Below, piece after piece: positions 7,499 to 62,060 of a stretch of DNA of 64,000 bases. Each line of letters opens with the position of its first letter. Within the stretch, counting starts at the first letter, position 1. A program made the position numbers and the translations under genes. Below the pieces are notes generated by a model. It saw only the letters and a list, made by a program, of their open reading frames with translations, was not told the origin of the DNA and made no database searches. Origin of the DNA: a virus (Duplodnaviria; Caudoviricetes); IMG/VR virus record IMGVR_UViG_3300047280_000041, positions 7,629 through 71,628 of that record. The stretch is one strand, 5' to 3'.

Positions 7499-7516
7499 CG
7501 ATTAGCGCGATAATGC

Positions 7517-33213: not shown

Positions 33214-33321
33214 TCTTTCTATGGTCTAATATGGACCATTAAACGGATGACTGAATAGCAGGAACTTCCGACCAAAATTTCCTTGGCACTGAGAGTGTCA
33301 AGATTGTCGGAGAACCTGCGA

Positions 33322-33657: not shown

Positions 33658-34703
33658 GCTTGCCTATCGTAGCCAACGCCATCAGAGCCGCTTGTGCGCG
33701 GATGGGCACGGCTGCGCAAGTCTCGGTCTCTCCAGTACGTCTGGCAATCGAAATAGGTGAGTTCCTGCTGAACGTGCGCAAGCGCGATTCAGTGACTGCG
33801 TCCGATGGCACGGGTGTTTTGAGCGAGATGTTCTTGACATTCTTCAAGTCCAAGATTGATGTGGCCAGCGTTGCTGAAGATGTCGCTTTCGAGTTCTACA
33901 AAGCCCTGCACGACGAAGCTGGGTTAAGTGATGCCCGCATTTTTGCGTTCTTCAAGACCCTGATTGATGAAATGCGTGTTCAAGATGCTCACGCATTGAA
34001 TCTGTCCAAGCCAATGGCAGAGCTGGTGGCCGGAGTAGAAGACAAGACGTATCTGCTCAGCAAGAAAGTCAAGGAAGATGCTGTAGGCGCTCAAGATGCG
34101 TTGGACTACTTCGATGTAGCCAAGGCATTGACTGACGGCATAGGCCTGGTAGAAGCCCGCGCATTTGGGCTTTTTCGCCCAATAGCTGAAAAGTTTGAAG
34201 TTGCTGATGCGGAGTTTCAAACCGTCACCAAAAACTTTCAAGACACCTTGCATGTCACAGATGACATGGACGGAGCCGCTTCAATTCTTGATGATCAAGC
34301 CATGCAGTTCACCAAACAGATGGCTGAAGTTGCCGGTGTAACTGACGAGATTTACATCATCATTGAAGTGCTCCGCGAATGGTTTGAAACGGCAACCGTT
34401 GGCGAAGTTTTCGCGCTATTACTGTCTCGCGGCCTGTTTGATTCTGCTGCAGTTTCAGATTACTGCAACCAAATTTTGAACAAGACTGTATTTGATACAG
34501 TCGGTACTCAAGATTCAACCACTAAGTCTGCGGCCAAATCGTTAGCAGACAGTGGGTTATTCACTGATGGCAAGGCAATTGCAATGTCAAGAGTGAAAAA
34601 CGAATCGACCCTAATTTCCGATACGGGGTCGTTACGCAATCAGAGCTATTCTGGCTCTGACTACTTTGCGGAAGACTACGTCGGAGTCTCCAGATCTTTT
34701 TAA
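33654..34703 (+). CDS. Repetitive tail-associated structural protein
   Basis: About 18-20-aa imperfect repeats (K.l.D...v.D) throughout; C-terminal DYFAEDYVG. Confidence 0.6.
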   Translation: MSLPIVANAIRAACARMGTAAQVSVSPVRLAIEIGEFLLNVRKRDSVTASDGTGVLSEMFLTFFKSKIDVASVAEDVAFEFYKALHDEAGLSDARIFAFFKTLIDEMRVQDAHALNLSKPMAELVAGVEDKTYLLSKKVKEDAVGAQDALDYFDVAKALTDGIGLVEARAFGLFRPIAEKFEVADAEFQTVTKNFQDTLHVTDDMDGAASILDDQAMQFTKQMAEVAGVTDEIYIIIEVLREWFETATVGEVFALLLSRGLFDSAAVSDYCNQILNKTVFDTVGTQDSTTKSAAKSLADSGLFTDGKAIAMSRVKNESTLISDTGSLRNQSYSGSDYFAEDYVGVSRSF

Positions 34704-34713
34704 AGGAAAAACC

Positions 34714-35172
34714 ATGATCAATGAAAAACTCAAACTGAGCGGCCAAGTCAATATCGTCGTCACCGACAAAAACGGTAACGTCAAAGACTCTCGTGAAATC
34801 AAGAACCTGGTAGTCAATACCGGTCTCGCATACATCATCTCCCGCATGGTGGGCACCAGCAAATCCGTTATGAGCCACATGGCTCTTGGTGCTGGTACCA
34901 CTGCAGCAGATGCCAGTCAGAGCGATCTGATCAGCATGTTGGGTAGCCGTGAAGCCATTGATTCCACAACCATCATTGGCAGCAACAACGAAAAAGTGCA
35001 GTTTGTTTCGACGTTTGAACCCGGCGATGCAACTGGTGCTGTGACTGAAGCCGGCATCTTCAACGCATCTACTGCTGGCGACATGTTGTGCCGCACGGTG
35101 TTTCCGGTGGTGAACAAAGCTGCTGACGACCAAATGGCCGTCACCTGGACTATCACGCTGGCTGCAGCTTAA
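34714..35172 (+). CDS. Tail collar / fibre attachment protein
   Basis: NLVVNTGLAYI...HMALGAG...GAVTEAGIFNA...MLCR motif typical of tail-fibre N-terminal anchor proteins. Confidence 0.7.
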   Translation: MINEKLKLSGQVNIVVTDKNGNVKDSREIKNLVVNTGLAYIISRMVGTSKSVMSHMALGAGTTAADASQSDLISMLGSREAIDSTTIIGSNNEKVQFVSTFEPGDATGAVTEAGIFNASTAGDMLCRTVFPVVNKAADDQMAVTWTITLAAA

Positions 35173-35185
35173 TAGAGGCGTCTAG

Positions 35186-36583
35186 ATGGAAGCGATCACT
35201 CTTCGCGCCGACCTTACCCGTGGTCTAACCAACGCGGAGATCGACGCCAACTGGAATGCAATCGTAGGTGAACTGAACACCAAGGTAACTGCTGCAGGTG
35301 CAAGAGCAGCTATCTCGGTGTCTGGTTCATTGACGTATAACTCTACAACAGGTGTTCTTGGCTTTACCGAGACACCATTGACAAGCGGGAACATTGTTTC
35401 GGCTTTGGGCTTTACGCCCTACAACAACAGCAACCCCTCTGGTTTCATTACCAGTGCGGCATTGACCAGTTATTTGCCGTTAGCTGGTGGCACATTAAGC
35501 GGTGCATTGACTGTTGGTGGAAACATTATTGCAGCTGCAAACGCTGGATCAAGCAGGATTATCGGCTTGTCAAGCGGAACCAATACAACGCTTGTCTTGC
35601 AAGCGGGTGCGGTAACAGGTTCCGGCGCAAACATTGAGCTGACAGCAGACAAGTATGCGTATGTGGATGCAGATGAAACTCGCTTACGCAGCAACGATGC
35701 GTCAGTTACTTTTCTGACTGCTAACTCGACTGGTTTAAACGTTGTCACGGGTGCTCTGAAGCAAGGCGGCAACCAAGTCCTGCATGCAGGCAACTTTGGC
35801 ACCTACGCAGCAGCGTTGTCACACACGCACAGCTATGCACCGCTGACTGGCGGTGGCACATCTGGCAGTTGGCCAATCAGTGTTACCGGTACAGCAGGCG
35901 GTGTGGCATGGTCTGCAGTGTCGGGCCGTCCTACCGGTGAACCTTGGTTTGGTACGGTGTCAAACTGCGGCGGCGTTTCTGGTGGTGGTTATTACGGAAC
36001 CGGCATCACTGGTGGTATGTACCTGTACGACGAAGGCGGAAACGTCAGAATTGGCGGCACGATTACATTGACTGCTTGCGCTTGCAACTGCAACTGCTCT
36101 ACATGCTGCTTCCCGCTTGACACGGAAGTCGCGATGGGCGATGGCTCAACAAAGGCGGTTCAAGATGTTGTCGTTGGCGATACGGTTTTGTCCCCATTCG
36201 GCGCAGACGTTGAGGTGCTGTCCCAAATTGTTTGCCCGGTTCAAGAGGGCGAAATCACCTACCTTGTAAATGGCACAACCCGAATGACACGAGAGCATTT
36301 GCTGCGCGGCGAATCCGGTTGGCTTGCTGTTGACTTGCAGGGCTACATCGGCTGGCGCGAAAAGCAAATGAGCGAAGGCTTGGATGCTGGAATTGACCCG
36401 GCCCAACTCAAGCAAGCCGAGGTCGGCGACTTGATTCTCACACTTAATGGTCTGGTCAAAATTGAATCCATTGAGCGCATCACCGGCAAAGCACCGGAGA
36501 CATTGATGTCTCTTGAGTTGACAGGCAGCCGCAGCTTCTTTGCTAACGGCATGGCTGTTGAATCAAAAACCAATCAGGGGTAA
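35186..36583 (+). CDS. Tail fibre with Cys-rich C-terminal motif fused to a Hint (intein-like) domain
   Basis: Fibre motifs (ALGFTPYN, YLPLAGGTLSG, VLHAGNF, HTH), then CACNCNCSTC, then CFPLDTEVAMGDG...VVVGDTV...TREH...FFANGMAVES. Confidence 0.85.
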   Translation: MEAITLRADLTRGLTNAEIDANWNAIVGELNTKVTAAGARAAISVSGSLTYNSTTGVLGFTETPLTSGNIVSALGFTPYNNSNPSGFITSAALTSYLPLAGGTLSGALTVGGNIIAAANAGSSRIIGLSSGTNTTLVLQAGAVTGSGANIELTADKYAYVDADETRLRSNDASVTFLTANSTGLNVVTGALKQGGNQVLHAGNFGTYAAALSHTHSYAPLTGGGTSGSWPISVTGTAGGVAWSAVSGRPTGEPWFGTVSNCGGVSGGGYYGTGITGGMYLYDEGGNVRIGGTITLTACACNCNCSTCCFPLDTEVAMGDGSTKAVQDVVVGDTVLSPFGADVEVLSQIVCPVQEGEITYLVNGTTRMTREHLLRGESGWLAVDLQGYIGWREKQMSEGLDAGIDPAQLKQAEVGDLILTLNGLVKIESIERITGKAPETLMSLELTGSRSFFANGMAVESKTNQG

Positions 36584-36586
36584 TAA

Positions 36587-37468
36587 ATGAACCAGCACCT
36601 ATTTCATTGGACGCTAGGCCAAAGCATACCTTTGCACATTAGCCTAGAAGTCGTTGGCGACACTGTGATGGTTGCGTACTTTAGGGATGCAACCAATGAG
36701 CCAACAGAAAGCGACGTTATCCTTGGCTCTGATGAATACACAGAGCTAAAAAGCAACGCAGCAAATCACCCCGTGATTCAAGTTCCTGAGTCTCTTTTTA
36801 TCGCCAGCACAATCAACCAAGATTGGGGCGACAAGAGGATTGGCCTTATTGGTTTTTCACAAATCAAAAAAGACTCAAACTTTATGGGTTCTCGTGAGTA
36901 CGCCGCTCCTGCAATCTACTGCTTTCAAGTCGATGCCAGAACCCCTGTTGCTCCATACAACTTGCTGGTTGACACAATAGATTCAAAGCGCAGCTCAGTG
37001 CATTCCAAGAGCCCGTTTTTGCGTGATACCGCAATTGTTGCGTTCTTGCACCGCAAAGATGTGCCGCTCTCGTCTGCGTCATTTGTTGTCCGACAACCAG
37101 AAGGCTCGCTGTTTGCATCAAACATTACGGGATGGGCTGAGACAACAACATCGCCAGCTGCTATCGTGCAGGCAACCATTCCAAAAGTTGTCTTTACTCA
37201 GTCCACAGTTTCAATTGCCTCAAACGAAACAGCGTCTGTTGGCTTTTCTGTGAAGTTTGATGATGGCTCCGTTGATTCTGGCGGAGAGCATGAGGCAGTG
37301 TTTGAATCTACTGGCGGCTACTTGCCAGTTCGACGCGTTGCCACAAACACTGGCACTGGCTCCATCCGCATCTCTGCGCTGGGCATGTTGAGCGGCGAGA
37401 GCTTCAAAGTAAAAGCTGGCTTTAAAAACTACTCTGGCACGGATGAGATTCTTGTAGAAGTGCTATGA
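36587..37468 (+). CDS. Fibre-associated protein with probable C-terminal beta-sandwich domain
   Basis: 293 aa, starts 3 nt after the fibre stop; beta-rich C-terminus ESTGGYLPVRRV...KVKAGFKNYSG. Confidence 0.65.
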   Translation: MNQHLFHWTLGQSIPLHISLEVVGDTVMVAYFRDATNEPTESDVILGSDEYTELKSNAANHPVIQVPESLFIASTINQDWGDKRIGLIGFSQIKKDSNFMGSREYAAPAIYCFQVDARTPVAPYNLLVDTIDSKRSSVHSKSPFLRDTAIVAFLHRKDVPLSSASFVVRQPEGSLFASNITGWAETTTSPAAIVQATIPKVVFTQSTVSIASNETASVGFSVKFDDGSVDSGGEHEAVFESTGGYLPVRRVATNTGTGSIRISALGMLSGESFKVKAGFKNYSGTDEILVEVL

Positions 37469-38094
37469 CAAAAACAGAAATTATCTTTGGCACACCGATT
37501 CTGGTGATAGACCTACCAAAGAATCCAGAAGCACTTTCTCGGATTGCTGCGGCATCGAAGGAATATCACTTCAAAAGGGCCAGGGATGATGCTGAGTTTG
37601 CAGCAAAAAACGGTCGAACCAGGATTTCTAGGCCCGATCTTTTAGAAAGTTTGCCTTCGTCAGATAGGGCATTTCTATTAGAGCCACTGAATGAAGCTGT
37701 TCGCTATTTCGTTGGTCATGGTTTGAAAGACTCGGCTACATACGAAAGAAAGCTGGCTGTGCGTGGGTTTGCCCGGTATTACCCGGATGGCGGAAGGATT
37801 GTTCCCCACACGCATTTTGATGCTGACATCGTTGTTTCAATTTATCTACAATCTGGGGGCACGGAAAATGCGCCGGCTGCAGACTTGATCCTGATAGATC
37901 AAACTGTTCGTGGCTATCCGCATCGTGCGCCGTTCCATAGAATCCCAGTGCGGGACGGAATGGCGGTAATTTTTCCAAGCTATGTGCTACATGAGACGGA
38001 CCCAAGCCCTGGTGAGAGAATCATTGCAGGGCTCGAGTACAAGATCATTGAGCACGATATGCACAAGATCTTCACCCCAACTGAGAAATACTGA
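37465..38094 (+). CDS. Putative 2OG-Fe(II) oxygenase
   Basis: IFGTPI N-terminus, PHTH...VVSIYL, G.AVIFPSYVLHET...ERI double-stranded beta-helix pattern. Confidence 0.8.
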   Translation: MTKTEIIFGTPILVIDLPKNPEALSRIAAASKEYHFKRARDDAEFAAKNGRTRISRPDLLESLPSSDRAFLLEPLNEAVRYFVGHGLKDSATYERKLAVRGFARYYPDGGRIVPHTHFDADIVVSIYLQSGGTENAPAADLILIDQTVRGYPHRAPFHRIPVRDGMAVIFPSYVLHETDPSPGERIIAGLEYKIIEHDMHKIFTPTEKY

Positions 38095-39437
38095 TGTTCG
38101 AGATTACTGCACTCAACCCGGCAACCAACGAAACAAAGCGGTTTTTCTACGACGCGCACAAGTCGACGTTAACGCATCAAGATGGTTCTGATGTGATGGC
38201 AGTAAAGCCGATGGGCTTTCATGCAATAGAAACAACCAGCGCAGTGACACCGACTGGAAAAACAAGCCCGCGCTTGTTGAAGATTTCGCTTGGCTTGTCG
38301 TGCAACTACGAGTGCGAATATTGCTCTCAGCGTTTTGTGCCAAGAGCAGAAGAAACCAATCACAACGACATCGACAATTTCATCGGTGGTTTGGACGCTT
38401 GGGTGAAAACACCCCCTGAAAAGATTGAGTTCTGGGGTGGTGAGCCTCTCGTCTACATCAAGACAATGCGCCCATTGGCTGAGGCAATCAGGCTGAAATA
38501 CCCGCAATCCGTTTTGTCCTTCATCACCAATGGCTCATTGCTGACTGAAGAATTGAATGAGTGGGTGGAAAGTATGGGATTTGCAGTGGGCATCAGTCAC
38601 GATGGCCCTGGCCAAAGCGTTCGTGGCCCAGATCCTTTGGACGACCCGATTCGCAAAGCTGCGATTCTTGACCTATATCGCAGACTTGCACCGCAAGGGC
38701 GCATTAGCTTCAATGCGATGATGAACAGATCAAACAAAAGTAGGGTCGCTGTTAGAAATTTTTTCGTCCAGCTGACTGGTGACGAGAATGTAAAAATTGG
38801 CGAAGGCAGCCTGATTGACGCTTACGATGAAGGTGGTTTATCGAGCTCGCTGAGCGGTAGTGAGCACGTCGAATTTAGAAGGAACTCCCTTTATGAAATT
38901 CGTACTTCACTGGGATTGAATGTCGAGATCACCAGAACTAAAGTAGAAAACTTCTTTCAATCCATCATCACTAAAAGACCATCGACATCGCTTGGGCAAA
39001 AGTGTGGCATGGATAGAAGCGATTCCATTGCAGTTGATTTAAACGGCAACGTCATGACTTGCCAGAACGTGAGCTCAAACAGTACAGCGCCGAATGGTAA
39101 TAGCCACCTGATTGGAAATGTGCAAGATTTGGGCGCTGTGAAACTGAACACCTCAACACATTGGTCTCACAGAGATGAGTGTTCTAAATGCCCAGTGCTG
39201 CAGCTGTGCGCTGGCGCGTGCATGTTTCTGGAAGGGAATTTGTGGGATGTCACTTGCGATAGTGCGTTCTCTGACAACATTGTTTTCTTTGCAGCCGCAT
39301 TCGAATTGATGACCGGGCACATTCCAATCTACATCAATGGCCCTCAGCGACAAGATCGCAGAGACGTGTTCGGACATATCTTTGGTGTCCCTAAACAAAC
39401 CAAGAGACCATTCCCAATTCCAGTCGTGGCTGGGTAA
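38094..39437 (+). CDS. Radical SAM enzyme with SPASM domain
   Basis: CNYECEYC (CxxxCxxC), FWGGEP, ISHDG; SPASM cysteines KCG...TCQ and CSKCPVLQLCAGAC...C. Confidence 0.95.
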   Translation: MFEITALNPATNETKRFFYDAHKSTLTHQDGSDVMAVKPMGFHAIETTSAVTPTGKTSPRLLKISLGLSCNYECEYCSQRFVPRAEETNHNDIDNFIGGLDAWVKTPPEKIEFWGGEPLVYIKTMRPLAEAIRLKYPQSVLSFITNGSLLTEELNEWVESMGFAVGISHDGPGQSVRGPDPLDDPIRKAAILDLYRRLAPQGRISFNAMMNRSNKSRVAVRNFFVQLTGDENVKIGEGSLIDAYDEGGLSSSLSGSEHVEFRRNSLYEIRTSLGLNVEITRTKVENFFQSIITKRPSTSLGQKCGMDRSDSIAVDLNGNVMTCQNVSSNSTAPNGNSHLIGNVQDLGAVKLNTSTHWSHRDECSKCPVLQLCAGACMFLEGNLWDVTCDSAFSDNIVFFAAAFELMTGHIPIYINGPQRQDRRDVFGHIFGVPKQTKRPFPIPVVAG

Positions 39438-39460
39438 ACAGACCTTTCAGAAAGCTTCAG

Positions 39461-39772
39461 ATGTTCACTGACGATCAAGGAACCAAACGAGAAACACCCG
39501 AAGAACTCACTATCGAGAGCAAACTCGATTTGATCCTTGATGAGATGCGCCACCTGCGGTCTGCGTTTCCCAAAGACGAGGATGGCAACGTCGACTATGA
39601 CGGCCACCGCAAATACCACGAGCACTTGATCCGCGCAGCTGAAGCGCAAGAAGCGTTCTGGAATGACCTTAAGAAAGAGGTCATCAAGAAAGGCATCATC
39701 GGTGCTCTGATTATCGGCCTTGGTTTGGTGTGGCTGGGTTTTCAAGCCAAGCTAGGTATCGGCCCGCATTGA
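39461..39772 (+). CDS. Holin-like membrane protein
   Basis: Single C-terminal hydrophobic helix; first gene of the lysis block. Confidence 0.5.
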   Translation: MFTDDQGTKRETPEELTIESKLDLILDEMRHLRSAFPKDEDGNVDYDGHRKYHEHLIRAAEAQEAFWNDLKKEVIKKGIIGALIIGLGLVWLGFQAKLGIGPH

Positions 39773-39773
39773 C

Positions 39774-40541
39774 GTGGACCCCATCAGCCTTCTCATGGCA
39801 GCACAAGCAGCAGTGGCTGCTGTGCGCAAAGGCTGCCAGATGCTCAGCGAAGGCAAAGCTGAGATCAGCAAGCTAAAGAAGACGGTTGAACAAGGCATCG
39901 GTGATGCCAAGGCAATCTACAAAGAAGTCACTGGCCTATGGTCGTGGCTTCTTGGTTTATTCAGCGGTGCTCCTAAAAAGCCAACGGTAGAGATCCAGAC
40001 TCCCGTCGCTGACACCCCAAAGCCTGCAGTAGCTCCAGTAGCTCAAGCCAAGAAGACCAAGCAGAAAGAGCCTGAGCTCAGCTACGAGGAATACCAAACC
40101 CAGGCAATACACCAAGTCTGCGAGCAGCTCAAGACCTTCTTTGAGATTCGTCGGAATCTAAGGTCCTACTGTCTGGAGCTTGAAGAAATCTCCAAAACAA
40201 CGACGACAATTGAAGACAGTGCTCTGGACAGAGTCGAGATTGAACTGCAACTGGAAAACATGACAGTTCAGATCCGTGAAGCAATGGTGTATGCACCCGC
40301 AGAACTGCGAAACATCTACAGCCGCTTCCTTGAGATGTACAACCTGATCATTGAGGAGCAAGAGTTTGCTCGTCAGGTCAAACGCAAGAAAGACAGGGAT
40401 GCAAAGTGGCAACGAGAACTCCTACGCAATCATCGTATAGACCGGGCAGCGGTGGGAACAGCAGTGGTGGTGGGAATACTGTGGATGTGGGCCTTTCTAC
40501 TGTCACTCGGATGGCTCGTGAGGACACACGCTGGTTTGTAA
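39774..40541 (+). CDS. Coiled-coil protein with C-terminal TM helix (lysis region)
   Basis: GTG start, MDPISLL N-terminus, C-terminal hydrophobic helix. Confidence 0.6.
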   Translation: MDPISLLMAAQAAVAAVRKGCQMLSEGKAEISKLKKTVEQGIGDAKAIYKEVTGLWSWLLGLFSGAPKKPTVEIQTPVADTPKPAVAPVAQAKKTKQKEPELSYEEYQTQAIHQVCEQLKTFFEIRRNLRSYCLELEEISKTTTTIEDSALDRVEIELQLENMTVQIREAMVYAPAELRNIYSRFLEMYNLIIEEQEFARQVKRKKDRDAKWQRELLRNHRIDRAAVGTAVVVGILWMWAFLLSLGWLVRTHAGL

Positions 40542-40750
40542 TCGGTGTGGTGGTGCTTTCACTGGTTCTGTTTTTGGTTCTTCCTATTGGCGTGCTGATC
40601 GCCGTCGATAATGAGAAACGGCTCGGTAGAGCTGAAGCCCGTATTGATCGCAAGATCAGACGATTGGAAAAACTTGAGGAGAGTCTTAAGGAAAAAGATG
40701 AAAAAGCTGTTGTACCTCGGCCTGCTGCTGGTACTGATAACGGGCTGTGA
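40511..40750 (+). CDS. Small membrane protein (TM plus coiled coil)
   Basis: WFVIGVVVLSLVLFLVLPIGVLIAV followed by a charged helix; start uncertain. Confidence 0.5.
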   Translation: MAREDTRWFVIGVVVLSLVLFLVLPIGVLIAVDNEKRLGRAEARIDRKIRRLEKLEESLKEKDEKAVVPRPAAGTDNGL

Positions 40751-40922
40751 AGACCGTTACCGGTATTACTGTCAGGATCCCAAAAACTTTGCGCAGAAGC
40801 GCTGTCAGAAACCCGATTGCTTATTTACCCAGGATTGCCCTGAGTACCTAGTAGCACCAATCCTGGAGAAGAAAATTGAACAATCTACATCAACCGCGTC
40901 GAGCCCTGTTCCAAACAACTGA
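40698..40922 (+). CDS. Small Cys-rich lipoprotein
   Basis: MKK signal, lipobox ITGC, then YRYYCQDP...C..P.C...QDC. Confidence 0.7.
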   Translation: MKKLLYLGLLLVLITGCEDRYRYYCQDPKNFAQKRCQKPDCLFTQDCPEYLVAPILEKKIEQSTSTASSPVPNN

Positions 40923-41451
40923 AGAACTGATCGCCTTCTGTGAAGTCATGGTGTGGGCCTTTGTGGTCGGCATTGTGATGCTGGTGTTTGGTGGCTTGGT
41001 TTTCGCCATGCTGTATTCCGTGACGTTCGTTCAGCAGCCACTTAAAACGATGGCTCCGATCGACATGGCCTACACCAAGATGCTCAATGACATCGTACTG
41101 CTGATGACAGGATCGATTACGACCCTGATCGGTATGCGCGTGGCAAAGAAGGCATCCGAGATGATGGCCAACAAAGTGAGCTCAACGCTTACCCCGACAC
41201 CGCCTACCTCACCGAGTTCAGGGCCTGCGTGTACACCCGCCCCTGTTCAGCCGGTAGGGCCATCGACTGCTCCTCCTGCACCTGCAGCATCGACTTCAAT
41301 CATGCCTGACTGGAACTGGATGAATTGGACGAACCCCCAGCTCGATGAGAACTGGACTCCGCCCCCTCCTCCTACGACGCCTGCAGATCATCTGGAGCCA
41401 GAAGATGAACGTGAATCCCTGGCCCACGCTCGAGCAGAGCAGCGAGTCTGA
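40876..41451 (+). CDS. Two-TM membrane protein with Pro-rich tail
   Basis: Two hydrophobic helices, then a P/T/S-rich region. Confidence 0.6.
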   Translation: MNNLHQPRRALFQTTEELIAFCEVMVWAFVVGIVMLVFGGLVFAMLYSVTFVQQPLKTMAPIDMAYTKMLNDIVLLMTGSITTLIGMRVAKKASEMMANKVSSTLTPTPPTSPSSGPACTPAPVQPVGPSTAPPAPAASTSIMPDWNWMNWTNPQLDENWTPPPPPTTPADHLEPEDERESLAHARAEQRV

Positions 41452-41453
41452 AC

Positions 41454-41921
41454 ATGCTGGCCTTACTCAGGAACCCCTGGATCATTCTCGGCGCGCTGTC
41501 TGCCGTCTTAACTGCATATTTCTACGGCCACCATGCCGGTTTTGTGCAGAGAGACTTGGAGATGCAAGCCGAGATCAGCCAGAAGAACAATGAGTCCCGC
41601 GAGCGTGAACAGAAGCTCAGCGAGCAACTCAATCAAACATCAACTCAATTGAAAGACGCCAATGATTCAATCAATCAAAAGCAAACTGCTCTTGATCGCG
41701 CTATCAGTGCTGGGCGGGTGCGCCTCCCCGCCGCCCGTTGCGTACAAGCCAGTTCAAGTGCCCCCGCTCCCAGCGGGAATCAGCAAGATGGAGCCGAATC
41801 TGACCGAGAGACTCTCCGACTTATTGCTCAAATCGCAGCCGACGGGGACAGAGCCATCGTTCAACTCAACGCCTGCGTCGAAGCCTACAACTCAGTCAGG
41901 AGCCAAGTAAATGGTCAATGA
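41454..41921 (+). CDS. Rz-like inner-membrane spanin
   Basis: N-terminal TM, long coiled coil, AGRVRL motif and C-terminal QLNAC. Confidence 0.8.
   Translation: MLALLRNPWIILGALSAVLTAYFYGHHAGFVQRDLEMQAEISQKNNESREREQKLSEQLNQTSTQLKDANDSINQKQTALDRAISAGRVRLPAARCVQASSSAPAPSGNQQDGAESDRETLRLIAQIAADGDRAIVQLNACVEAYNSVRSQVNGQ
41662..41910 (+). CDS. Rz1-like outer-membrane spanin lipoprotein (embedded in Rz, +1 frame)
   Basis: Signal peptide with lipobox LGGC, Pro-rich mature part, fully nested in the Rz gene. Confidence 0.75.
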   Translation: MIQSIKSKLLLIALSVLGGCASPPPVAYKPVQVPPLPAGISKMEPNLTERLSDLLLKSQPTGTEPSFNSTPASKPTTQSGAK

Positions 41922-42525
41922 ATCCCAACTACAACGGCTGCACATCAACCCGGCGTTGTGCTCGGCCCTGAATGAGACGTTCGAGATGTTCAACATTCGG
42001 ACGGCCCGTCAGCAAGCAGCTTTCTTGGCTCAGTGCGGTCATGAATCTGGCAACTTCACAAAGCTGGAAGAAGACCTGCGCTACCGTGGTGCCACGCTCT
42101 TCAAGATGTTCCCTAAGACGCCAAAGCGTGCCTGGGGTTTTGCATCAGTAGAAGAAGCGATGACCTACCAAGGTCACCCCGAGCGCATTGCCTCCCGCAT
42201 CTACGGCGGCCGAATGGGCAACCGCGATGAGAAGTCAGGCGATGGCTGGCTGTACCGGGGATCCGGCAACATGCAATTGACCGGAGCGGCGAATTTCTTC
42301 CATGCCGGCAAGGCCCTGGGCCAAGACTTTGTCCGCAACCCGGATCTTGTCCGCACACCTGAGTGGGGCCTGAAGACTGCTGGCTGGTTCTGGTCGACTC
42401 ACCGCTGCAACGAGCTGGCCGAGAAGGCTGACTGGACTGGCTTGACCAAGGCCATCAACGGGGGCTTGATCGGCTACGACGATCGAGTGGCCCACACTGG
42501 ACTAGCACTAAACGTGCTGGCTTGA
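41911..42525 (+). CDS. Endolysin, glycoside hydrolase family 19
   Basis: AAFLAQCGHESGNF, GDGWLYRGSGNMQLTG, AGWFW and TKAINGG. Confidence 0.92.
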   Translation: MVNESQLQRLHINPALCSALNETFEMFNIRTARQQAAFLAQCGHESGNFTKLEEDLRYRGATLFKMFPKTPKRAWGFASVEEAMTYQGHPERIASRIYGGRMGNRDEKSGDGWLYRGSGNMQLTGAANFFHAGKALGQDFVRNPDLVRTPEWGLKTAGWFWSTHRCNELAEKADWTGLTKAINGGLIGYDDRVAHTGLALNVLA

Positions 42526-43292: not shown

Positions 43293-43525
43293 GGCACGTC
43301 TCCGTTGGGGCAGGTGCCTGTAGCGGTCAACATGCAGGGCTCTTCAGGGTGGCAAAGCGATGAGCAGGTGTGTCGGCCAGACTTGATGGCTTCAGCAAAA
43401 TTGGTCAGCTGAGCCCAAGTGAGGGTCACACCAGTCACCGCACGCATGGGGCCTTCGGTGTGGCTCTTGGCACCGCAGTTGAAGGCAAGGGTGCGCAGGT
43501 GTTCTTGGATCATGGGAGCTTTCAA
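43289..43525 (-). CDS. Hypothetical protein with C-terminal Cys/His cluster
   Basis: HTCSSLCHPEEPCMLTATGTC. Confidence 0.5.
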   Translation of the reverse strand: MKAPMIQEHLRTLAFNCGAKSHTEGPMRAVTGVTLTWAQLTNFAEAIKSGRHTCSSLCHPEEPCMLTATGTCPNGDVP

Positions 43526-43557
43526 TTGCAGGATTCCGCTTCAATTGCAGAACCCAA

Positions 43558-43592
43558 AGAAAAAGGGCCTGAGTCGTTAGACCCAAGCCCTT
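43558..43592 (-). terminator. Terminator just downstream of the tRNA-like att core
   Basis: On - strand gggcttgggtc-taac-gactcaggccc followed by a T run. Confidence 0.7.
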
Positions 43593-43609
43593 GAATTTAC
43601 TACGTTTTC

Positions 43610-43654
43610 TGGCGCGCCCGGCAGGATTCGAACCCACGACCCCTTGGTTCGTAG
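43610..43654 (-). other. attP core: 45-bp copy of the 3' half of tRNA-Arg(ACG)
   Basis: Reverse complement CTACGAACCAAGGGGTCGTGGGTTCGAATCCTGCCGGGCGCGCCA gives anticodon loop (ACG), T-arm GGTTCGAATCC, acceptor strand and CCA; D-arm and 5' half are absent. Confidence 0.88.
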
Positions 43655-43757
43655 ACAGCTCGTTTGCCGTACTGGGCAGCGTTAGAAATCAATGGCTTGG
43701 CCCACATTGCTCATGCAAGAGGCGAGGTTTGGGTACCACGCTAAGTCATTGATTTTA

Positions 43758-44033
43758 TTAGGGGGTCGGACGAGCAATTGCAGGAATTGCAGGCCCTTGT
43801 TTGCCCCGAACGTACTTGATGAGGCGCACGATGCCAGTCATGCCACGGCGCTGCTCACGGATCCACCAGTAGCCCGTCATGGGCCAGAAGTCGATGGTCT
43901 CCGTGCGCGTGCGAATCAGGATGGTTGCAGCGCTGGCCCAGGCCTCAAACTTGATGCCGTCGCGCTCCAAGTGCTTACACACATGGGTCATGGTCAAAGG
44001 CACCCGGGTCAGGGGTTTGCGGCCGCGCTTCAT
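43758..44033 (-). CDS. Hypothetical protein
   Basis: 91 aa, IDFWPMTGYW motif, coupled ORF. Confidence 0.6.
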   Translation of the reverse strand: MKRGRKPLTRVPLTMTHVCKHLERDGIKFEAWASAATILIRTRTETIDFWPMTGYWWIREQRRGMTGIVRLIKYVRGKQGPAIPAIARPTP

Positions 44034-44275
44034 CGTCTGGCTACCCAGCCAACAGGCTCGGTGTCCTCGCTGTTGAGCTTGGCGAACTCTTCGTCAGCCA
44101 GTGCGCGATCTTCGAAGCAGAACCGCCGGCCCCAGCCGTAGCGGTTCAGGTTCATGTAGATGGCGCGAGTGAACATCAGATCTCCGATGCCCACAATGCA
44201 GCCATCAGGCAGGAGCTTGACCTCACGGTAGTCACCCATGGCTTGGATGTCGGCAAGTAGTTGTTGGTCACTCAT
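44030..44275 (-). CDS. Hypothetical protein
   Basis: 81 aa; GWGRRFCFED; ATGA overlaps. Confidence 0.6.
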   Translation of the reverse strand: MSDQQLLADIQAMGDYREVKLLPDGCIVGIGDLMFTRAIYMNLNRYGWGRRFCFEDRALADEEFAKLNSEDTEPVGWVARR

Positions 44276-44466
44276 CGCATGGCCCTCATCTTGAGCATGT
44301 AGCCCTGGGTGTAGAGACTAGCCCAATCATCAAGTCGATTGCTCATCTTGGCTTGGGGAAGGATGGCCATGAGTTGAGTCAGTGTCTGCTCGGTTTGTTC
44401 CATCATGGCTTTGCGTTTACTGGAAACGATTTGCTGGGGGGAGATTGGGCGGGATGAGTTGGTCAT
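44272..44466 (-). CDS. Hypothetical protein
   Basis: 64 aa; overlaps the upstream ORF by about 50 bp, start uncertain. Confidence 0.4.
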   Translation of the reverse strand: MTNSSRPISPQQIVSSKRKAMMEQTEQTLTQLMAILPQAKMSNRLDDWASLYTQGYMLKMRAMR

Positions 44467-44662
44467 ACGGATTTCCATCGAACATCTTTGCAAGGGGAAT
44501 GGTGGTTACCTCTTCAGTGTCTGGGTTGTGCTCGAAAGCACAGATGATGACAACAGGTTTTCCCGTTTCAACATCCGTGCATTCCATTAAGCCAGCATCA
44601 CCATTGATGATTGCTCGAGCCAGTGTTGAGAGATTTTTCTGATAGCCTTTGGCAATTGTCAT
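44417..44662 (-). CDS. DUF6117-like hypothetical protein
   Basis: NLSTLARAIINGDAGLMEC...PLAKMFDGNPYDQLIPP pattern; family name from recall. Confidence 0.55.
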   Translation of the reverse strand: MTIAKGYQKNLSTLARAIINGDAGLMECTDVETGKPVVIICAFEHNPDTEEVTTIPLAKMFDGNPYDQLIPPNLPPANRFQ

Positions 44663-44666
44663 GGGA

Positions 44667-45758
44667 TTACCTCATTGGTTTGACCACCTCCGCTTTGCGT
44701 CGGTAGATTCGTTTTGTGGTTCGGCTGTCAGCGTGAGCCAACAAAGCTTGTGCATGCACCAGGGATTCAGCATCGCTACCTACCTTGGCACGTAGATCGT
44801 GTTCGGTGAAGTGCTCAGTGACCTTGGTTTCTTTCAGTACCCGTTCCATGAAGCGTTGCCACATGGATTTCCAGCCAGATGATTGGCCGGTGACCTCATT
44901 CACGTAGCTTGCGCCGTAGCGGTTGCAGAACAGGAATGTGGAATTCTTGTTTGAACGGGAAGCCAAGGCCAGATCAACAGCCAATTTCAGTGCAGGTGTC
45001 CACACATAGATTGTCCGTTTACCGGTTTTCTTGGCTGTCTTGTGGCGTTCGTTGTGAATACCGTCATCTTGAATATGCGATGTTTGCAGCCTCAGTAAAT
45101 CTCCCTGGGCCATGCCCGTGAGAAGTTTCAAACGCAGATATGCCTGGATCATCATGACGCTGCCACGCTTGCGCTTGCAGTCCAGTGAAAGTGCTTCAAC
45201 GATCTCCCAGTCTTCCACGTAGCGATCTCTGGGAGTTTCTCCCTGAAGTCTTACTTCGTGTTTGAATGGGTGACGATCGATGTAACCCCATTGCACAGCT
45301 TTGGTGTAAGCATGGCTGAGTAATTCGATTTCACGGTGAGCAGCAATGACACCACCTGTGACTCGTCCTGTTTCAGGATCAGTCTTCTTGACGCTGCGTT
45401 TGTCCACGTACTGGTAAACCAGTTGTGGTGTAAACGGCTTCAATGGGTGGGCACCGAAGACACGCTTAAGCATCTTCAGTTGGTTCATGTTGCTGCCTTG
45501 ACTGGCTGGCGCTTTCTTGGGAATCACCTCAAGCACGTAGCGATCCAACAGATCACCAATGGTCTTGGCTTCAGTTGGCTTGGCTACTCGGTCAGACCAG
45601 ATCTGATAAGCCTCATGCAGTTTGTCGCTGAGACGGAAGGATTGCTTCCCATCCCAAAGGTGTTCAAGCCCCTTGGGGACCATGTAGTAGTAAGCCCCGT
45701 AGGCAAATCGCCATCGGGCCGGGAGACCCCGGTTTTCTTTGCTGCGTTGACGCGGCAT
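44667..45758 (-). CDS. int: Tyrosine recombinase / phage integrase
   Basis: Arm-binding-like N-terminus, core-binding region, box II HDLRAK, LLAH and C-terminal Tyr (IYRR); box I reads TGMAQGD. Confidence 0.92.
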   Translation of the reverse strand: MPRQRSKENRGLPARWRFAYGAYYYMVPKGLEHLWDGKQSFRLSDKLHEAYQIWSDRVAKPTEAKTIGDLLDRYVLEVIPKKAPASQGSNMNQLKMLKRVFGAHPLKPFTPQLVYQYVDKRSVKKTDPETGRVTGGVIAAHREIELLSHAYTKAVQWGYIDRHPFKHEVRLQGETPRDRYVEDWEIVEALSLDCKRKRGSVMMIQAYLRLKLLTGMAQGDLLRLQTSHIQDDGIHNERHKTAKKTGKRTIYVWTPALKLAVDLALASRSNKNSTFLFCNRYGASYVNEVTGQSSGWKSMWQRFMERVLKETKVTEHFTEHDLRAKVGSDAESLVHAQALLAHADSRTTKRIYRRKAEVVKPMR

Positions 45759-45982
45759 TACATTGCATCCCAGTTGGGTTGAACAGCTTTGGGTTGGGAA
45801 CGGGTACTCGAGTCACCGTCAAAGACTTTGAAGATGTGAGCTCTGAGAATGGCAATGGAGCCATCAGGGCGCACACGGTGCTCGATACCCATGGATTTAA
45901 GAGCGCGTGACTGGGCAGGACGAACCTTGCGTTCAGTCAGCGTGCGGACCTCATCTTCCGTAAGGAAGGTGTCAGTAGCCAT
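45758..45982 (-). CDS. Excisionase-like DUF4224 protein
   Basis: FLTEDEVRTLTERK...QSRALKSMGIEHRVRPDG...PNWDAM; stop overlaps the integrase start. Confidence 0.8.
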   Translation of the reverse strand: MATDTFLTEDEVRTLTERKVRPAQSRALKSMGIEHRVRPDGSIAILRAHIFKVFDGDSSTRSQPKAVQPNWDAM

Positions 45983-46406: not shown

Positions 46407-46823
46407 ATGTCTGCTGGTGAAATGATCATGCGGTGCTTTCATGCCCGCACTGCTGCGCACGTTGCGCATTTGCAAACCCGTTCCTATGCGGAACACAAGG
46501 CTCTGAATGAGTTCTATGACGAGATCGTCGACATTGCCGACGACTTTGCTGAGACTTATCAGGGCATCTTTGGTTTGATTACAGAGTACCCAGGGCTTTC
46601 ATTGCCCACAGGTAAAGCTTGTGATTGGATTGAAGCTATGCGTGCTTGGCTCAAAGCTAATCGTGAAGCATGTTGCAAGGGTGAAACCACTCTTGAAAAC
46701 ATTCACGACACTCTGAGTGGCTTGTGCGCATCGACGTGCTACAAGCTGCGTTTCTTGAACAGCGGTGAGTCTGCTGAACATGAAGCCATGGAGCATGGCC
46801 TCATGAAGATGAGCAAGTGGTAA
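46407..46823 (+). CDS. Ferritin/Dps-like four-helix bundle protein (DUF5856-like)
   Basis: AHVAHLQTRSYAEHKALNEFYDEIVDIADDFAETYQG; AAAGGA RBS; the only + strand gene within the - strand block. Confidence 0.8.
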   Translation: MSAGEMIMRCFHARTAAHVAHLQTRSYAEHKALNEFYDEIVDIADDFAETYQGIFGLITEYPGLSLPTGKACDWIEAMRAWLKANREACCKGETTLENIHDTLSGLCASTCYKLRFLNSGESAEHEAMEHGLMKMSKW

Positions 46824-46867: not shown

Positions 46868-47516
46868 ATGCGCGGCTGTCAAGCAATTCGACAATCGTAG
46901 CCAAGGTGCCTTGAGCTTCTAAGATCTTGTTTGCGATCTTTGCGCTCTTAGTCTTGACCGACTTCAGATCAGCAATCTCTGCTTCAATGGTTTTGATGGC
47001 GTCGATCAACTGATCGTCGTTCATAGACTTAACGTCGACGTTGTTGATGAAAGTGACGTTCTTGATGATGATTTTGTTAGACATGGGGATTTCTTTCTCT
47101 GGCTCGGCCAGTACACAGGGTTGAGGTTGGCTGATGAGGACTTCAGCACAGGGGTTGATGGTTGGTGCGGAGAAACTACGAACTCCGCGATCGGTGTAAT
47201 GCAAGCCAACAGTATTGAGGCTTTCCACGCTTTCTTGCCAGACGCGTTTGCCTGATTGTGTTGTTAAGGCCTTGCCATATCCACCTAGACGAAACCAGGT
47301 TTCCATGCAGATGTAGGCATGCTCCCATACAAGCAAATCGTTATCGCCAATAAGACGACGGGTCGGTACGATGAGTGATCTGATGGCAGCAGAGAAATCT
47401 CGAAAATGTCCGTCTCGAATTTTCTCTTTGAGACCGGGGACAGCTTTCGAATCATTCTCTAATGCCCAGACGTATTGCGTGACCAGGTGGTCAACACGAT
47501 CAACTACCGAGGTCAT
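46866..47516 (-). CDS. Hypothetical protein (possible internal start at 47084)
   Basis: ATGA coupling at 47513-47516; C-terminal coiled-coil domain preceded by an internal ATG. Confidence 0.55.
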   Translation of the reverse strand: MTSVVDRVDHLVTQYVWALENDSKAVPGLKEKIRDGHFRDFSAAIRSLIVPTRRLIGDNDLLVWEHAYICMETWFRLGGYGKALTTQSGKRVWQESVESLNTVGLHYTDRGVRSFSAPTINPCAEVLISQPQPCVLAEPEKEIPMSNKIIIKNVTFINNVDVKSMNDDQLIDAIKTIEAEIADLKSVKTKSAKIANKILEAQGTLATIVELLDSRA

Positions 47517-48052
47517 GGCGCAGCTTTCGCTGCAGCAATCTTGCCGGCGTTGCTCTTGGGCCAACCAGCCTGAACAAACTCAGAGAGCACGTTGGCAACT
47601 GCTGGGAGAGTCTTTGCTGCTTTGGCTTCTTCATCAGGCAGGTATGCACTGAACTCAGGCAGCGCTTCTTCGAGTTGCTTGCGTGTGGTACAGGCATAAG
47701 CCACACCTTTCAAGCGTGCCTCGAGCGAAGACATCTTTGTCTCCTGCTCTTTTTTCTTTGCACCGATGGCTTCAAGCTTGGTCCAGACCTTGTCATCATT
47801 TTTCAACATGCCGTAGTTTTTAATGCACTTCATGTAGATGTTGTTGATGCCAAAAGGCATGTTTACCGAGCCAGATTCAAACCACTCGGACTCGCATGCG
47901 AGGTCGTAATCGATGGTTGGGAAATCTTTTTTGAACATGGCACGCACGGTGTCACGAGCCAGCTTGTCTGCTTGCTCTTCGTAGTTGACCTTGGGCACAT
48001 CGTGCATGACTGCACGAATGAATCCGTCACGGAGGAAGTTGGTTAATCGCAT
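47513..48052 (-). CDS. Nmad5-like (nucleotide modification associated domain 5) protein
   Basis: MRLTNFLRDGFIRAVMHDVP N-terminus and TTRKQLEEALPEFSAYLP motif. Confidence 0.7.
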   Translation of the reverse strand: MRLTNFLRDGFIRAVMHDVPKVNYEEQADKLARDTVRAMFKKDFPTIDYDLACESEWFESGSVNMPFGINNIYMKCIKNYGMLKNDDKVWTKLEAIGAKKKEQETKMSSLEARLKGVAYACTTRKQLEEALPEFSAYLPDEEAKAAKTLPAVANVLSEFVQAGWPKSNAGKIAAAKAAP

Positions 48053-48340: not shown

Positions 48341-48478
48341 TTAATCGTTGTGCATGTAATGCAGCAACAGGTACCAGATGGCTAGGTGCGCCGCTGATTC
48401 ACGCAGAGTCTGGTTGTACAGCTTCTGGTAATGGCGGCTCCAGCCAAGGTTGTCGCTGCCAACGGGATGACGTTTCAT
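48341..48478 (-). CDS. Small hypothetical protein (45 aa, not in the ORF track)
   Basis: ATG overlaps the polymerase TGA; hand translation MKRHPVGSDNLGWSRHY... Confidence 0.4.
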   Translation of the reverse strand: MKRHPVGSDNLGWSRHYQKLYNQTLRESAAHLAIWYLLLHYMHND

Positions 48479-51114
48479 GCAGCCTCCTTTTGAGGGGAAC
48501 AGGTTTGAAGAATCGTGGCTTGATCCGCGTCGTTGGGTAACGTCGTGGGATGAGCCCAGTCTGGGTAGAAGATGTCGAGCGCAGCACCCAGCTTCACAGT
48601 CGGGTGTTGAATCTCAGGCAGCTCTTGCCAGCGCATGGACGCAATGAGCTCGCGGTTGGCCCACTCTACGATCTCCACATCGTTGCGGATGAGGATGTAG
48701 ATCGCGTCATGAATCAGAGCCACGGGCACAATGTCCAAGCGGTACTTGGATGCCCAGACCTTCTTCATGAACTCGACTGCAGCACGGTTGTTGAGCAAGC
48801 CATAGGACTGACCCAACGCGTTGCCGGCAGTGCGGCCTTCCGCTGCTGCTTCGTAGGGCATGCCTCGAGTGCCGTACACCACTTGCTTGAGCAGCGGTGT
48901 GCGCACACGTAGACCAAAGGCCACCTCCACGTAGCCATCCTGAGCTGCTTGCTTCAGACGTTGTTGCACGTAGGCATCACTCACCTGGTAGAGATCGTGA
49001 TAGCCCTTCTCGATGGCCTTGGCTTTGTCTTCTGGCCAACCAAGGTTGGACATCATGCCGTGATACGTGCCTCCGTAGGTAAGCAGAAAGGTGGGAGCCT
49101 TGCTGTCTTGACGGAGCTCCGGGTACTTCTTCTTCATTGAGTTGACCGAGACAGGATCTGTTGGATCAATATCAGGGCACTCGTCTCGGAAGTAGTACGC
49201 CGCGCGCAGGCAGTGACCATCAAAGCCTTGCTCATAAACAGCAAGCTTGTTGGGATCCTTGGTGGTCAGTGCAGAGATGTAGTCCTCAAGCGAGTTGAAG
49301 TCTGCACCTGCAAAGAGCCACCTAGGCGGGCTGACAAAGCATTCCTTGATGAGCTTTCCGTACACCGAACCAGCAGGGATGTTCTGCATGTTTGGATCAG
49401 ACGATGACAGTCGACCCGACACCGTGCCGCCGAGGTTGAAGGAGCCATGCAACCAGACAATATCGCTATCGTCTTTGGAGATGGCAGATTCAAACGCAGG
49501 GATGAATGTCGACAAGACCTTGGTGGCCTTGCCGTAGCCGATCAGACCTTCCAAGATGTCTTTGTACTCAGGCACCGTGGTGTGGTTGATCAGCTTTTCG
49601 ATCGTCTCTGCGCCCGTGGCAGGTTGCTTGGTATCTGTGAGGTCAATGACTGGCAAGCCCATCTGCTCATAAAGGAGCCGTTGAAGCTGAGGGCCAGAAT
49701 TAGGATTGAATTCCATCCCCACGAACGCAGAACGGTTCTTCGGAAGAATCTTTCCAGGATTCTTGGCTTTGGCTTTACGTAGTTCATAGTCCTTGTTCCA
49801 CGCCGTCTCTTGCAAGAGCAAGTTGAGCGCTTTGATGGTGTTGTTGCTGTTGATCTTGACCAGGTTGTCGAGCTGAATGCCAAAGAGCTTTTCCTTGACC
49901 TCTTGGATCTTGGTTCGACTCATGGGCATGCCTGTCAACTCGATCTGAATGATCAAGCGAAGGCTGCCCAGCATGAGCCCCTGATAGAGATCGTGCTGCA
50001 GATCACCCACCATGATGGGCCAGTACTTTTCAGCCACGTAGTTGGTTGAGAGTGCGTCAATCAGGTTGTACTGAAGCAACTCATCCAACGGGATGCGGCG
50101 GATGTCTTTGATGTCGTCTTTGGCCCAGTTGCCTGCAAACTCGTGAGCCAGTGACTTCAAGCCCAGCACGTTGCCGGCCGTGGAGTTGGTGGCCAGGTAC
50201 GCAATGATCTTGGTGTCATGGAAACGTCGAGTCATCAGCTCCAAGCCATCAAGCAAACCTGCTGTGTCCAGCAAGTTCTGCATGAAAAGCGTGTAGATGA
50301 TCACGCACACGTCGTAATCAGCTTTGTGAAAGATGAGCTCGCCTTGGTAAGTCGCAAAGAACTGCCGCAGCAATGAGCGCACACCCCGGTTGATGTGCTG
50401 TTTCCCGAACTGACCATGCGCAACTTCAAGCGTGTCGGTTTCTTCTGTGTAATCACAGGCGAATGCCACACCGTTGTGCTTGTCTTGAGCAAAAGCAATC
50501 GTGCCAATGCCAGCCGTGTTGAATGCCAGCGAGAAGGCCTCGATGTCACAACTGAGGCTTGTGTATTGGTGAAGCGATTCAAGCGCTGCAGCGATCTCCT
50601 CGATCGTTTTGGGGTACTGCGCGCTGTGGATGATGTCTGCACCGATGGCTTGGTAGTTGCCAGCGACGCTGGAAGCCAAGGTGTGCAAGCTCAGGTCCAG
50701 CTTGGTCTGCAACGCAGGGTTGTAGATCAGCTGTTGGTAGTTGAGGCTGAGCACCACGTTCATGTGCTCGTAGCCTTTGATCTTGCACGGCATCACGTAA
50801 CCCAGATGAGGCTCTGAGGTACCGACGCCGGCAAGCGTCTTGAAGTAGGCACCGTCGGTGACGAGTAGCTGCTTGACACCCAGGCTATCAAGCGCTGGCA
50901 GCAAGTTGGCCAGATACTCTTTGATGACCTTAGACGAAGCCTTACCGTTGTCGTCGTACTTGACGGTGAATGCAATCACGTTGTCTTCAGCGATGCCGCG
51001 CGCGACGAGCGGCTGAACGTAGTTGATGCGGAGCTCTGAAGCGTTGAATGCGGTGCCCTTGACGAGCAGCGCTATTTCATAGCTGTTGGCTTCTTTGAAG
51101 ATGATGTGTCGCAT
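48475..51114 (-). CDS. DNA polymerase, family A, with 3'-5' exonuclease (N4 gp39-like)
   Basis: SCDIEAF exo I, GRLSSSDPNMQNIP, ADFNSLE motif A, RQDSKAPTFLLTYGG motif B, LIHDA motif C. Confidence 0.96.
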   Translation of the reverse strand: MRHIIFKEANSYEIALLVKGTAFNASELRINYVQPLVARGIAEDNVIAFTVKYDDNGKASSKVIKEYLANLLPALDSLGVKQLLVTDGAYFKTLAGVGTSEPHLGYVMPCKIKGYEHMNVVLSLNYQQLIYNPALQTKLDLSLHTLASSVAGNYQAIGADIIHSAQYPKTIEEIAAALESLHQYTSLSCDIEAFSLAFNTAGIGTIAFAQDKHNGVAFACDYTEETDTLEVAHGQFGKQHINRGVRSLLRQFFATYQGELIFHKADYDVCVIIYTLFMQNLLDTAGLLDGLELMTRRFHDTKIIAYLATNSTAGNVLGLKSLAHEFAGNWAKDDIKDIRRIPLDELLQYNLIDALSTNYVAEKYWPIMVGDLQHDLYQGLMLGSLRLIIQIELTGMPMSRTKIQEVKEKLFGIQLDNLVKINSNNTIKALNLLLQETAWNKDYELRKAKAKNPGKILPKNRSAFVGMEFNPNSGPQLQRLLYEQMGLPVIDLTDTKQPATGAETIEKLINHTTVPEYKDILEGLIGYGKATKVLSTFIPAFESAISKDDSDIVWLHGSFNLGGTVSGRLSSSDPNMQNIPAGSVYGKLIKECFVSPPRWLFAGADFNSLEDYISALTTKDPNKLAVYEQGFDGHCLRAAYYFRDECPDIDPTDPVSVNSMKKKYPELRQDSKAPTFLLTYGGTYHGMMSNLGWPEDKAKAIEKGYHDLYQVSDAYVQQRLKQAAQDGYVEVAFGLRVRTPLLKQVVYGTRGMPYEAAAEGRTAGNALGQSYGLLNNRAAVEFMKKVWASKYRLDIVPVALIHDAIYILIRNDVEIVEWANRELIASMRWQELPEIQHPTVKLGAALDIFYPDWAHPTTLPNDADQATILQTCSPQKEAA

Positions 51115-62030: not shown

Positions 62031-62060
62031 TTGGTTTCCCTTCAGGTTGAGGCAAAAGCG

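Follow-up and report, generated by a model that had tools for sequence, protein, structure and literature searches.

The window analysed here, 64,000 nucleotides of DNA corresponding to bases 7629-71628 of the 71,628-bp IMG/VR virus record IMGVR_UViG_3300047280_000041, contains a tyrosine integrase gene (int), a small excisionase-like gene (xis) and a phage attachment site (attP) whose core is the 3' half of a tRNA-Arg(ACG) gene. All coordinates are given in window numbering, and those of the principal features are collected in Table 1. N4-like phages are widely regarded as strictly lytic, a belief that helps to make them attractive for phage therapy and biocontrol. We estimate at about 0.75 the probability that the integrase, the excisionase-like gene and the attachment site form a working site-specific integration module of the lambda type, maintained in a clade of uncultured N4-like phages (Schitoviridae) that infect Burkholderiales. 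We infer that the N4-like lineage itself would integrate and form lysogens.

The attachment site has a lambda-style layout. Read in the direction of int, it consists of tandem arm repeats, two sites that match the consensus for integration host factor (IHF), the tRNA-derived core, an intrinsic terminator and two more repeats. The first-pass annotation of the window, made from the letters alone, had proposed paired repeats on both sides of the core and a terminator downstream of it, and both hold up. The arm motif CTGCAATT occurs seven times in the 64 kb, and four of these are minus-strand copies no more than 270 bp from the core. The IHF consensus WATCAANNNNTTR, with only seven occurrences in the window, fits both of the 13-mers that are invariant in a four-way alignment of the window with L002, L003 and L004, relatives found via the integrase protein. 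The terminator has a centroid energy of -21.9 kcal/mol and a minimum free energy (MFE) fold z of -3.5; none of 200 shuffled sequences folds equally well, and the stem shows compensatory changes in relatives. The arm motif changes between lineages, being CTGCAATT in the window, L002, L047 and L048, GCGTCAT in L003, TGTACTAT in L004 and TGCGCAAT in L049, yet the P and P' arms of one phage always match, as expected for arm-type sites read by the N-terminal domain of the phage's own Int. The module shows all the hallmarks expected of a functional lambda-type integration system under selection, with tRNA-Arg(ACG) as its target.

The core, CTACGAACCAAGGGGTCGTGGGTTCGAATCCTGCCGGGCGCGCCA on the minus strand (beginning CTACGAACC and ending GCGCGCCA), is identical at 45 of 45 positions to nucleotides 33-77 of tRNA-Arg(ACG) genes in 11 Burkholderiales genomes, in a scan that covered one genome per prokaryote species. 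Carriers of the 45-mer include Bordetella petrii, Limnobacter, Zeimonas and metagenome-assembled genomes (MAGs) of Burkholderiaceae, and a similar terminator stands behind the tRNA there. The reading of the core as a tRNA-Arg(ACG) half is thereby upheld, and the suggestion that the 45-mer could be compared with bacterial tRNAs to predict the host has proved workable: the host is probably a member of Burkholderiales. ARAGORN found no whole tRNA in the window. Among seven contigs the core is 100% identical in all 21 pairs, with the P arm at 34-98% and the P' arm at 54-85% identity; L047-L049 were picked by a pattern that requires the core, so that an unbiased comparison is confined to the window and L002-L004, the last three having been found through protein.

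Two sets of bacterial loci around the same tRNA gene were also inspected. Bordetella petrii has two copies of the core 24 kb apart, and these were considered as a possible att pair and rejected, as they belong to two intact tRNA-Arg genes and represent empty attB sites. In other Burkholderiales loci (L036, L037, L038, L040-L043 and L045) tRNA-Arg(ACG) and a terminator are followed by paired repeats of 8-12 bp peculiar to those loci (for example TGTACCCCTTT twice, GGAGCGACT twice), as though these were attL sites of other elements that use the same tRNA gene. The loci, which extend up to about 8 kb downstream of the tRNA, nevertheless showed no related integrase.

Profile searches recognise both the tyrosine integrase and the coupled DUF4224 xis-like gene of the first-pass annotation (Table 1). 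The stop codon of xis overlaps the start codon of int (TAATG), so that xis lies directly upstream of int in an arrangement of translational coupling, and a xis homologue adjoins int in 32 of 34 related viral loci. In the two exceptions, L016 and L032, the match to int begins at the edge of the locus. Sequence similarity between Int and lambda Int (1Z1G) is weak (E 0.011). Residues 1-60 of Int can be aligned to the N-terminal arm-binding segment of lambda Int, residues 1-60, with MPRQRSKENRGLP opposite MGRRRSHERRDLP, in a region where Pfam makes no call of an arm-binding domain; this alignment, together with arm-type sites on both arms of attP, identifies Int as a predicted heterobivalent integrase of the lambda type. 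The gene is under strong purifying selection, with a ratio of nonsynonymous to synonymous substitution rates (dN/dS) of 0.05-0.18 within the N4-like clade; synonymous sites are saturated between deeper lineages.

The active site of this integrase departs from the canonical layout, a point on which the interpretation in the first-pass annotation is silent. K240, H320, R323, H342 and Y352 are present and are invariant across 141 relatives. The position of lambda R212, the first catalytic arginine (Arg I; box I, TGxR), is occupied in the window by Ala217 (TGMAQGDL). Across the 141 relatives, alanine, serine, proline or glycine at position 217 pairs with arginine at position 238 in 130 of 130 sequences, and arginine at 217 pairs with proline at 238 in the other pattern (11/11). 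Position 238 is K-2, two residues ahead of the catalytic lysine. This covariation makes R238 a candidate stand-in for Arg I, and the best explanation of the module includes, as a probable part, that the subfamily moved its first catalytic arginine from box I to K-2.

There is a precedent in the integrase of CTnDOT (IntDOT), which, according to the passage of PMC8138268 that cites Kim et al. (2010), has no Arg I and relies on an arginine further downstream that functionally replaces it. Like Int of the window, IntDOT is a tyrosine recombinase without the box I arginine. It differs in belonging to another subgroup, that of a Bacteroides conjugative transposon, and in having no close sequence relation to Int, whose own substitute arginine is suggested by covariation. 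The IntDOT substitute reportedly also lies at K-2. The occurrence of Ala217/R238 and Arg217/Pro238 within one family amounts to a clean natural experiment on Arg I in tyrosine recombinases. More distant integrases in L019, L025, L029 and L034, 55-58% identical to Int and canonical in having Arg217/Pro238, lie at prophage ends and are oriented convergently with a tRNA-Ser(GGA) gene. In this integrase family both the tRNA target and the layout of the active site have changed.

Integration by the same subfamily can be seen directly in a conventional temperate element. A Burkholderiales genome, G291, holds a 51.5-kb prophage with the variant int (Ala217, R238; 58% identical) and a DUF4224 xis, bounded by a 53-bp direct repeat of the 3' part of tRNA-Arg(ACG). 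At attL the whole tRNA-Arg(ACG) gene is followed by a terminator and paired TGT(G/A)CTATAGAAA repeats; attR, 51.5 kb away, consists of a partial tRNA copy with a TGTACTAT site and two IHF-consensus sites ahead of it. The subfamily integrates in nature at tRNA-Arg(ACG), as this prophage shows. The same integrase variant, along with a tRNA 3' fragment and GGGTCATAG repeats, occurs in Xanthomonas phage PBR31 (MT119766), a cultured phage presumed to be temperate (PMC10975493). The G291 prophage and PBR31 carry the closest integrases of cultured or integrated elements, 58-59% identical to that of the window, and share with the window alanine at Arg I (box I TGMAR-), arginine at K-2, a DUF4224-type xis, the tRNA 3' fragment, paired arm repeats and IHF-like sites. 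Unlike the window, both are conventional temperate phages of 40-50 kb and are not N4-like, and in G291 int-xis lies on the other side of attP. The int-xis pair is placed on the P' side, directed at the tRNA, in G291, L008, L021, L032 and L080; in the N4-like clade it is found on the P side, with the reading direction of the core. The internal order of the attP cassette is the same in both arrangements.

The genome that surrounds the module is N4-like (Schitoviridae), as had been proposed. It encodes the virion RNA polymerase (vRNAP), both subunits of RNA polymerase II (RNAPII), which serves the middle genes, an N4-type primase (phrog_2135), DNA polymerase and helicase, and a major head protein that matches phrog_1357, all within a genome of about 70 kb; CheckV puts the completeness of the 71,628-bp record at 98%. 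The central domain of vRNAP is less than 40% identical to that of any cultured phage, and a megablast search of 42.5-47 kb against GenBank phages gave no matches, which together indicate a lineage without a cultured member in the collection searched.

Phage genes were said to lie on both sides of the module, and they do: endolysin on one flank and DNA polymerase on the other, in an order repeated in independent assemblies. Comparison gene by gene with three complete relatives (G787, G788 and G789) shows full collinearity. In G787, the record that holds L002, the endolysin is 98.5%, Int 95.3% and the DNA polymerase 93.9% identical to the window's. The break falls among the lysis genes in G787 and among the structural genes in G788, and the four contigs compared are circularly permuted, though IMG/VR labels them linear; their common map is therefore a circle, in which attP has phage genes on either side in all four, as befits attP rather than a prophage junction. 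The first-pass annotation had allowed that 42.5-46.4 kb might be a chimera. Related contigs are collinear across this region, and so the int region is not chimeric. At least six further contigs from different samples (L002, L003, L004, L047, L048 and L084) have the same attP layout and flanking gene order, and close integrase relatives occur on many contigs of 69-74 kb. In four N4-like genomes helicase, polymerase, xis and int are syntenic, and int and polymerase are similarly diverged, which is evidence for vertical inheritance of the module.

Two relatives depart from this layout. The first, L005 (IMGVR_UViG_3300019776_000521), is an N4-like contig of 73.6 kb with an integrase 74% identical to that of the window. 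At its positions 7751-8054 the core is reduced to GGCTACGAACCAA, followed by TGTA(G/C)TAT P' repeats and then by a complete tRNA-Arg(ACG) gene of different sequence; a search for this layout, a cut core plus a whole tRNA, returned only L005 itself and one unrelated contig with tandem tRNAs. That L005 retains only GGCTACGAACCAA suggests that strands are exchanged at the anticodon loop and that the remaining nucleotides of the core, or the whole tRNA gene as a second, independent solution in L005, keep the host supplied with tRNA-Arg(ACG), a matter of consequence only if the integrated state is lived in. The second relative, L084 (IMGVR_UViG_3300046355_000136; reverse complement, about 1378-1510), has a clean in-frame-like deletion from about codon 17 of xis to about codon 345 of int, joining the first 16 or so xis codons to the last 20 or so int codons. 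Its attP is intact and 87% identical to that of the window, and L084 is a natural lytic-only derivative. An additional gene of about 210 amino acids lies upstream in L084.

Judged from this anatomy, the module could work as follows. As they share a strand with the middle (replication) genes and come after the gene for DNA polymerase, xis and int would be made during infection. The genome would circularise, the lambda-Int-like N-terminal domain of Int would bind the four CTGCAATT arm sites, and host IHF would bend the P arm at its two consensus sites. Strand exchange between attP and the tRNA-Arg(ACG) gene of the host would follow, carried out by the catalytic domain and probably located within or beside the anticodon loop; the 45-nucleotide phage copy would rebuild the tRNA, and the phage terminator would end the rebuilt gene. 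Xis, acting with Int, would reverse integration. A doubtful extension of this scheme holds both that the prophage is silent by default without a classical repressor, since N4-type early promoters are read only by the virion-injected polymerase, and that Ala217/R238 is a second independent relocation of the arginine after IntDOT, onto the lysine hairpin. Default silence would fit the lack of a CI-like gene; if it were true, lysogeny would be governed by whether host RNA polymerase makes vRNAP or RNAP II from the prophage. An open reading frame (ORF) at 18529-18966 on the minus strand matches only PHROGs of unknown function and has a homologue in G788 and G789 and none in G787; its product is conceivable as a candidate prophage-silencing factor.

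A number of results weigh against a working module in a lysogenic lineage. The integrated copy at tRNA-Arg that the first-pass annotation proposed to look for in assemblies was not found for the N4-like lineage: searches of IMG/VR, JGI metagenome contigs and GTDB representative genomes found no attL or attR of an N4-like relative. A pattern specific to attL (whole tRNA plus CTGCAATT arm) had no matches in IMG/VR and JGI metagenome contigs, general patterns of P arm plus core returned attP forms or conventional prophage-type elements only, and the exact core plus P' spacer had no match in IMG/VR. The 11 bacterial loci that bear the core have no proteins of the window phage beside tRNA-Arg, and junctions were seen only for the non-N4 prophage with a related integrase in G291. 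In sampled Burkholderiales genomes the central domain of vRNAP was absent throughout (0/401, 0/172 and 0/232, or 0/805), by a search whose positive control detected three of three relatives, and five host-candidate genomes likewise lacked phrog_2206. Of the 120 closest integrase clusters, none is on a contig exceeding 74 kb in length. Neither HTH_3 nor Peptidase_S24 was found in six frames of the whole genome, and 10 small ORFs examined yielded no repressor-like family, though a regulator of another kind may exist. L084 lost xis and int yet kept attP, and the module is therefore dispensable and can be lost. The canonical Arg I, finally, is missing from Int.

Some of these results would suit a phage that can integrate without being truly temperate, one in which integration is occasional or transient and no stable repressed prophage forms. 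No repressor-like gene and no integrated copy were found, and close integrase homologues are all on contigs of phage size or smaller. The idea is modelled on a proposal for integrase-bearing T7-like marine podoviruses, and T7-like pelagiphages with int and tRNA cores, long considered lytic, do integrate (bioRxiv 10.1101/410191). We nevertheless regard it as unlikely here, since a conserved Xis and the rebuilding of tRNA and terminator would be of use only to a lysogen that lives on and is excised afterwards, L005 offers a complete tRNA in place of the rebuilt one, and other N4-like lineages have been reported as integrated proviruses (PMC10654107). Ala217 at the position of lambda R212 and the deletion in L084, which shows that the genes can be removed, might instead point to an integrase that is catalytically dead or domesticated and to an attP that is a relic. 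That is very improbable: R238 covaries perfectly with loss of Arg I, and IntDOT offers a precedent in the passage of PMC8138268 cited above; the same variant flanks a real prophage with attL and attR in G291 and is also found in PBR31; and strong purifying selection, an invariant core and covarying arm sites all speak for use. Three kinds of artefact can be imagined: a chimeric assembly, a prophage junction taken for attP, and a phage tRNA gene in decay. In their favour, tRNA genes are common in N4-like phages, and a whole tRNA-Arg(ACG) gene occupies the same place in L005. Such an origin is scarcely credible when at least six other contigs have the same layout and G787 is collinear, and arm repeats, IHF sites and a terminator are not features of a decaying tRNA gene. 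A functional integration module kept by the N4-like clade remains our preferred reading.

Lysogeny genes in N4-like lineages have been described before. Zheng et al. (2023; mSystems 8:e00197-23, PMC10654107) identified in IMG/VR lysogeny genes in 54 N4-like genomes, together with 40 proviral regions, the proviruses being mainly in Moraxella, and concluded that some N4-like viruses are lysogenic. Their text contains no occurrence of attP, excisionase, repressor, Burkholderi- or Betaproteobacteria. The genomes of that study resemble the window in having a Schitoviridae backbone and a phage integrase and in coming from IMG/VR; for the window the attP anatomy, tRNA-Arg(ACG) target, likely Burkholderiales host and variant active site are described in addition, and no provirus of its lineage was found. 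The window thus adds a well-defined example, with a fully mapped attP, to the 2023 report, and leaves the overall picture unchanged because the central claim is already in the literature. Where the first-pass annotation spoke of a rare lysogenic N4-like phage, the attP/int/xis module is real and under selection, lysogeny is a prediction for a lineage in which neither attL/attR nor a repressor was found, and "rare" is overstated in view of the genomes and proviral regions counted in 2023 and of the many 69-74 kb contigs with close integrase relatives.

The module can also be compared with other systems. Lambda shares with the window an integrase of the two-site type, arm sites that flank the core, IHF sites on the P arm and a small Xis gene directly upstream of int. 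The window differs in that its core is a tRNA 3' half (that of lambda is intergenic), its Xis is of the DUF4224 type and its Arg I appears relocated. T7-like pelagiphages (HTVC019P group) and cyanophage P-SSP7 resemble the window phage as podoviruses of a kind classically seen as lytic that encode an RNA polymerase of their own and have an integrase and a tRNA core (11-46 bp); in some, a complete tRNA makes up for the host gene that integration disrupts, as appears to be so in L005. They belong to a different family, and their polymerase is not delivered by the virion, so that the question of how transcription restarts differs. The integrase-bearing T7-like pelagiphages are the nearest functional parallel.

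Table 1. Coordinates of the integration module and of N4-like marker and flanking genes in the window
Feature	Coordinates	Strand	Description
attP	43521-43795		lambda-style; about 1 kb downstream of int
P'-arm arm-type sites	43521-43551	-	two CTGCAATTGAA copies, 19 bp apart (CTGCAATT at 43524 and 43543)
Intrinsic terminator	43553-43592	-	13-bp stem and U-run at 43563-43592; follows CCA
attP core	43610-43654	-	3' 45 nt of tRNA-Arg(ACG), anticodon loop to CCA
IHF-consensus site 2	43687-43699	+	AATCAATGGCTTG; inverted relative to site 1; invariant in four-way alignment
IHF-consensus site 1	43742-43754	-	AATCAATGACTTA; invariant in four-way alignment
P-arm arm-type sites	43776-43792	-	two tandem CTGCAATT (43776, 43785)
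Small ORF	43758-44033	-	weak PHROG matches only
Small ORF	44030-44275	-	weak PHROG matches only
DUF6117 small protein	44417-44662	-	PF19612, E 6e-13; between int and attP; accessory
Tyrosine integrase (int), lambda-type	44667-45758	-	363 aa; PF00589, E 1.6e-9; phrog_1, E 6e-32
xis-like gene (DUF4224), putative recombination directionality factor	45758-45982	-	74 aa; PF13986, E 1.6e-11; phrog_1266 "excisionase", E 1.2e-10
Virion RNA polymerase (vRNAP)	7590-17891	+	3433 aa; phrog_2206, E 0, 2112 bits, full-length profile; N4-like hallmark
Endolysin	41911-42525		one flank of the module
DNA polymerase	48475-51114		other flank of the module
RNAP II subunit	58698-59948		phrog_2051, E 4e-150
RNAP II subunit	61125-62069		phrog_2166 "N4-like RNA polymerase", E 6e-100

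Of the small ORFs between int and the core, the one nearer the core overlaps attP: its 3' end codes PAIPAIA over the P-arm repeats. It has a homologue 83% identical in L002 and is absent in L003 and L004. Just upstream of xis, a DUF5856/Dps-like "starvation-inducible regulator" gene (phrog_858; 46407-46823) is a lone plus-strand gene, beside which lies a minus-strand gene for an Nmad5 (nucleotide-modification-associated) domain protein (47513-48052).

Elsewhere in the window, a 12.5-kb block on the plus strand (30040-42525) is set inside the minus-strand replication genes, and the lysis genes at its end adjoin attP. The genes at 31137-33213 and 36587-39437, the latter a radical-SAM cassette, have no homologue in the three complete relatives. 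Within 3184-17891, vRNAP is 39.5% identical to that of G787 and the two preceding genes are 56% and 38% identical, against 78-98% for most other genes. The vRNAP of G789 is 63% identical to that of the window, though the remaining G789 genes are more distant, and the polymerase region looks like a module swapped within the clade.

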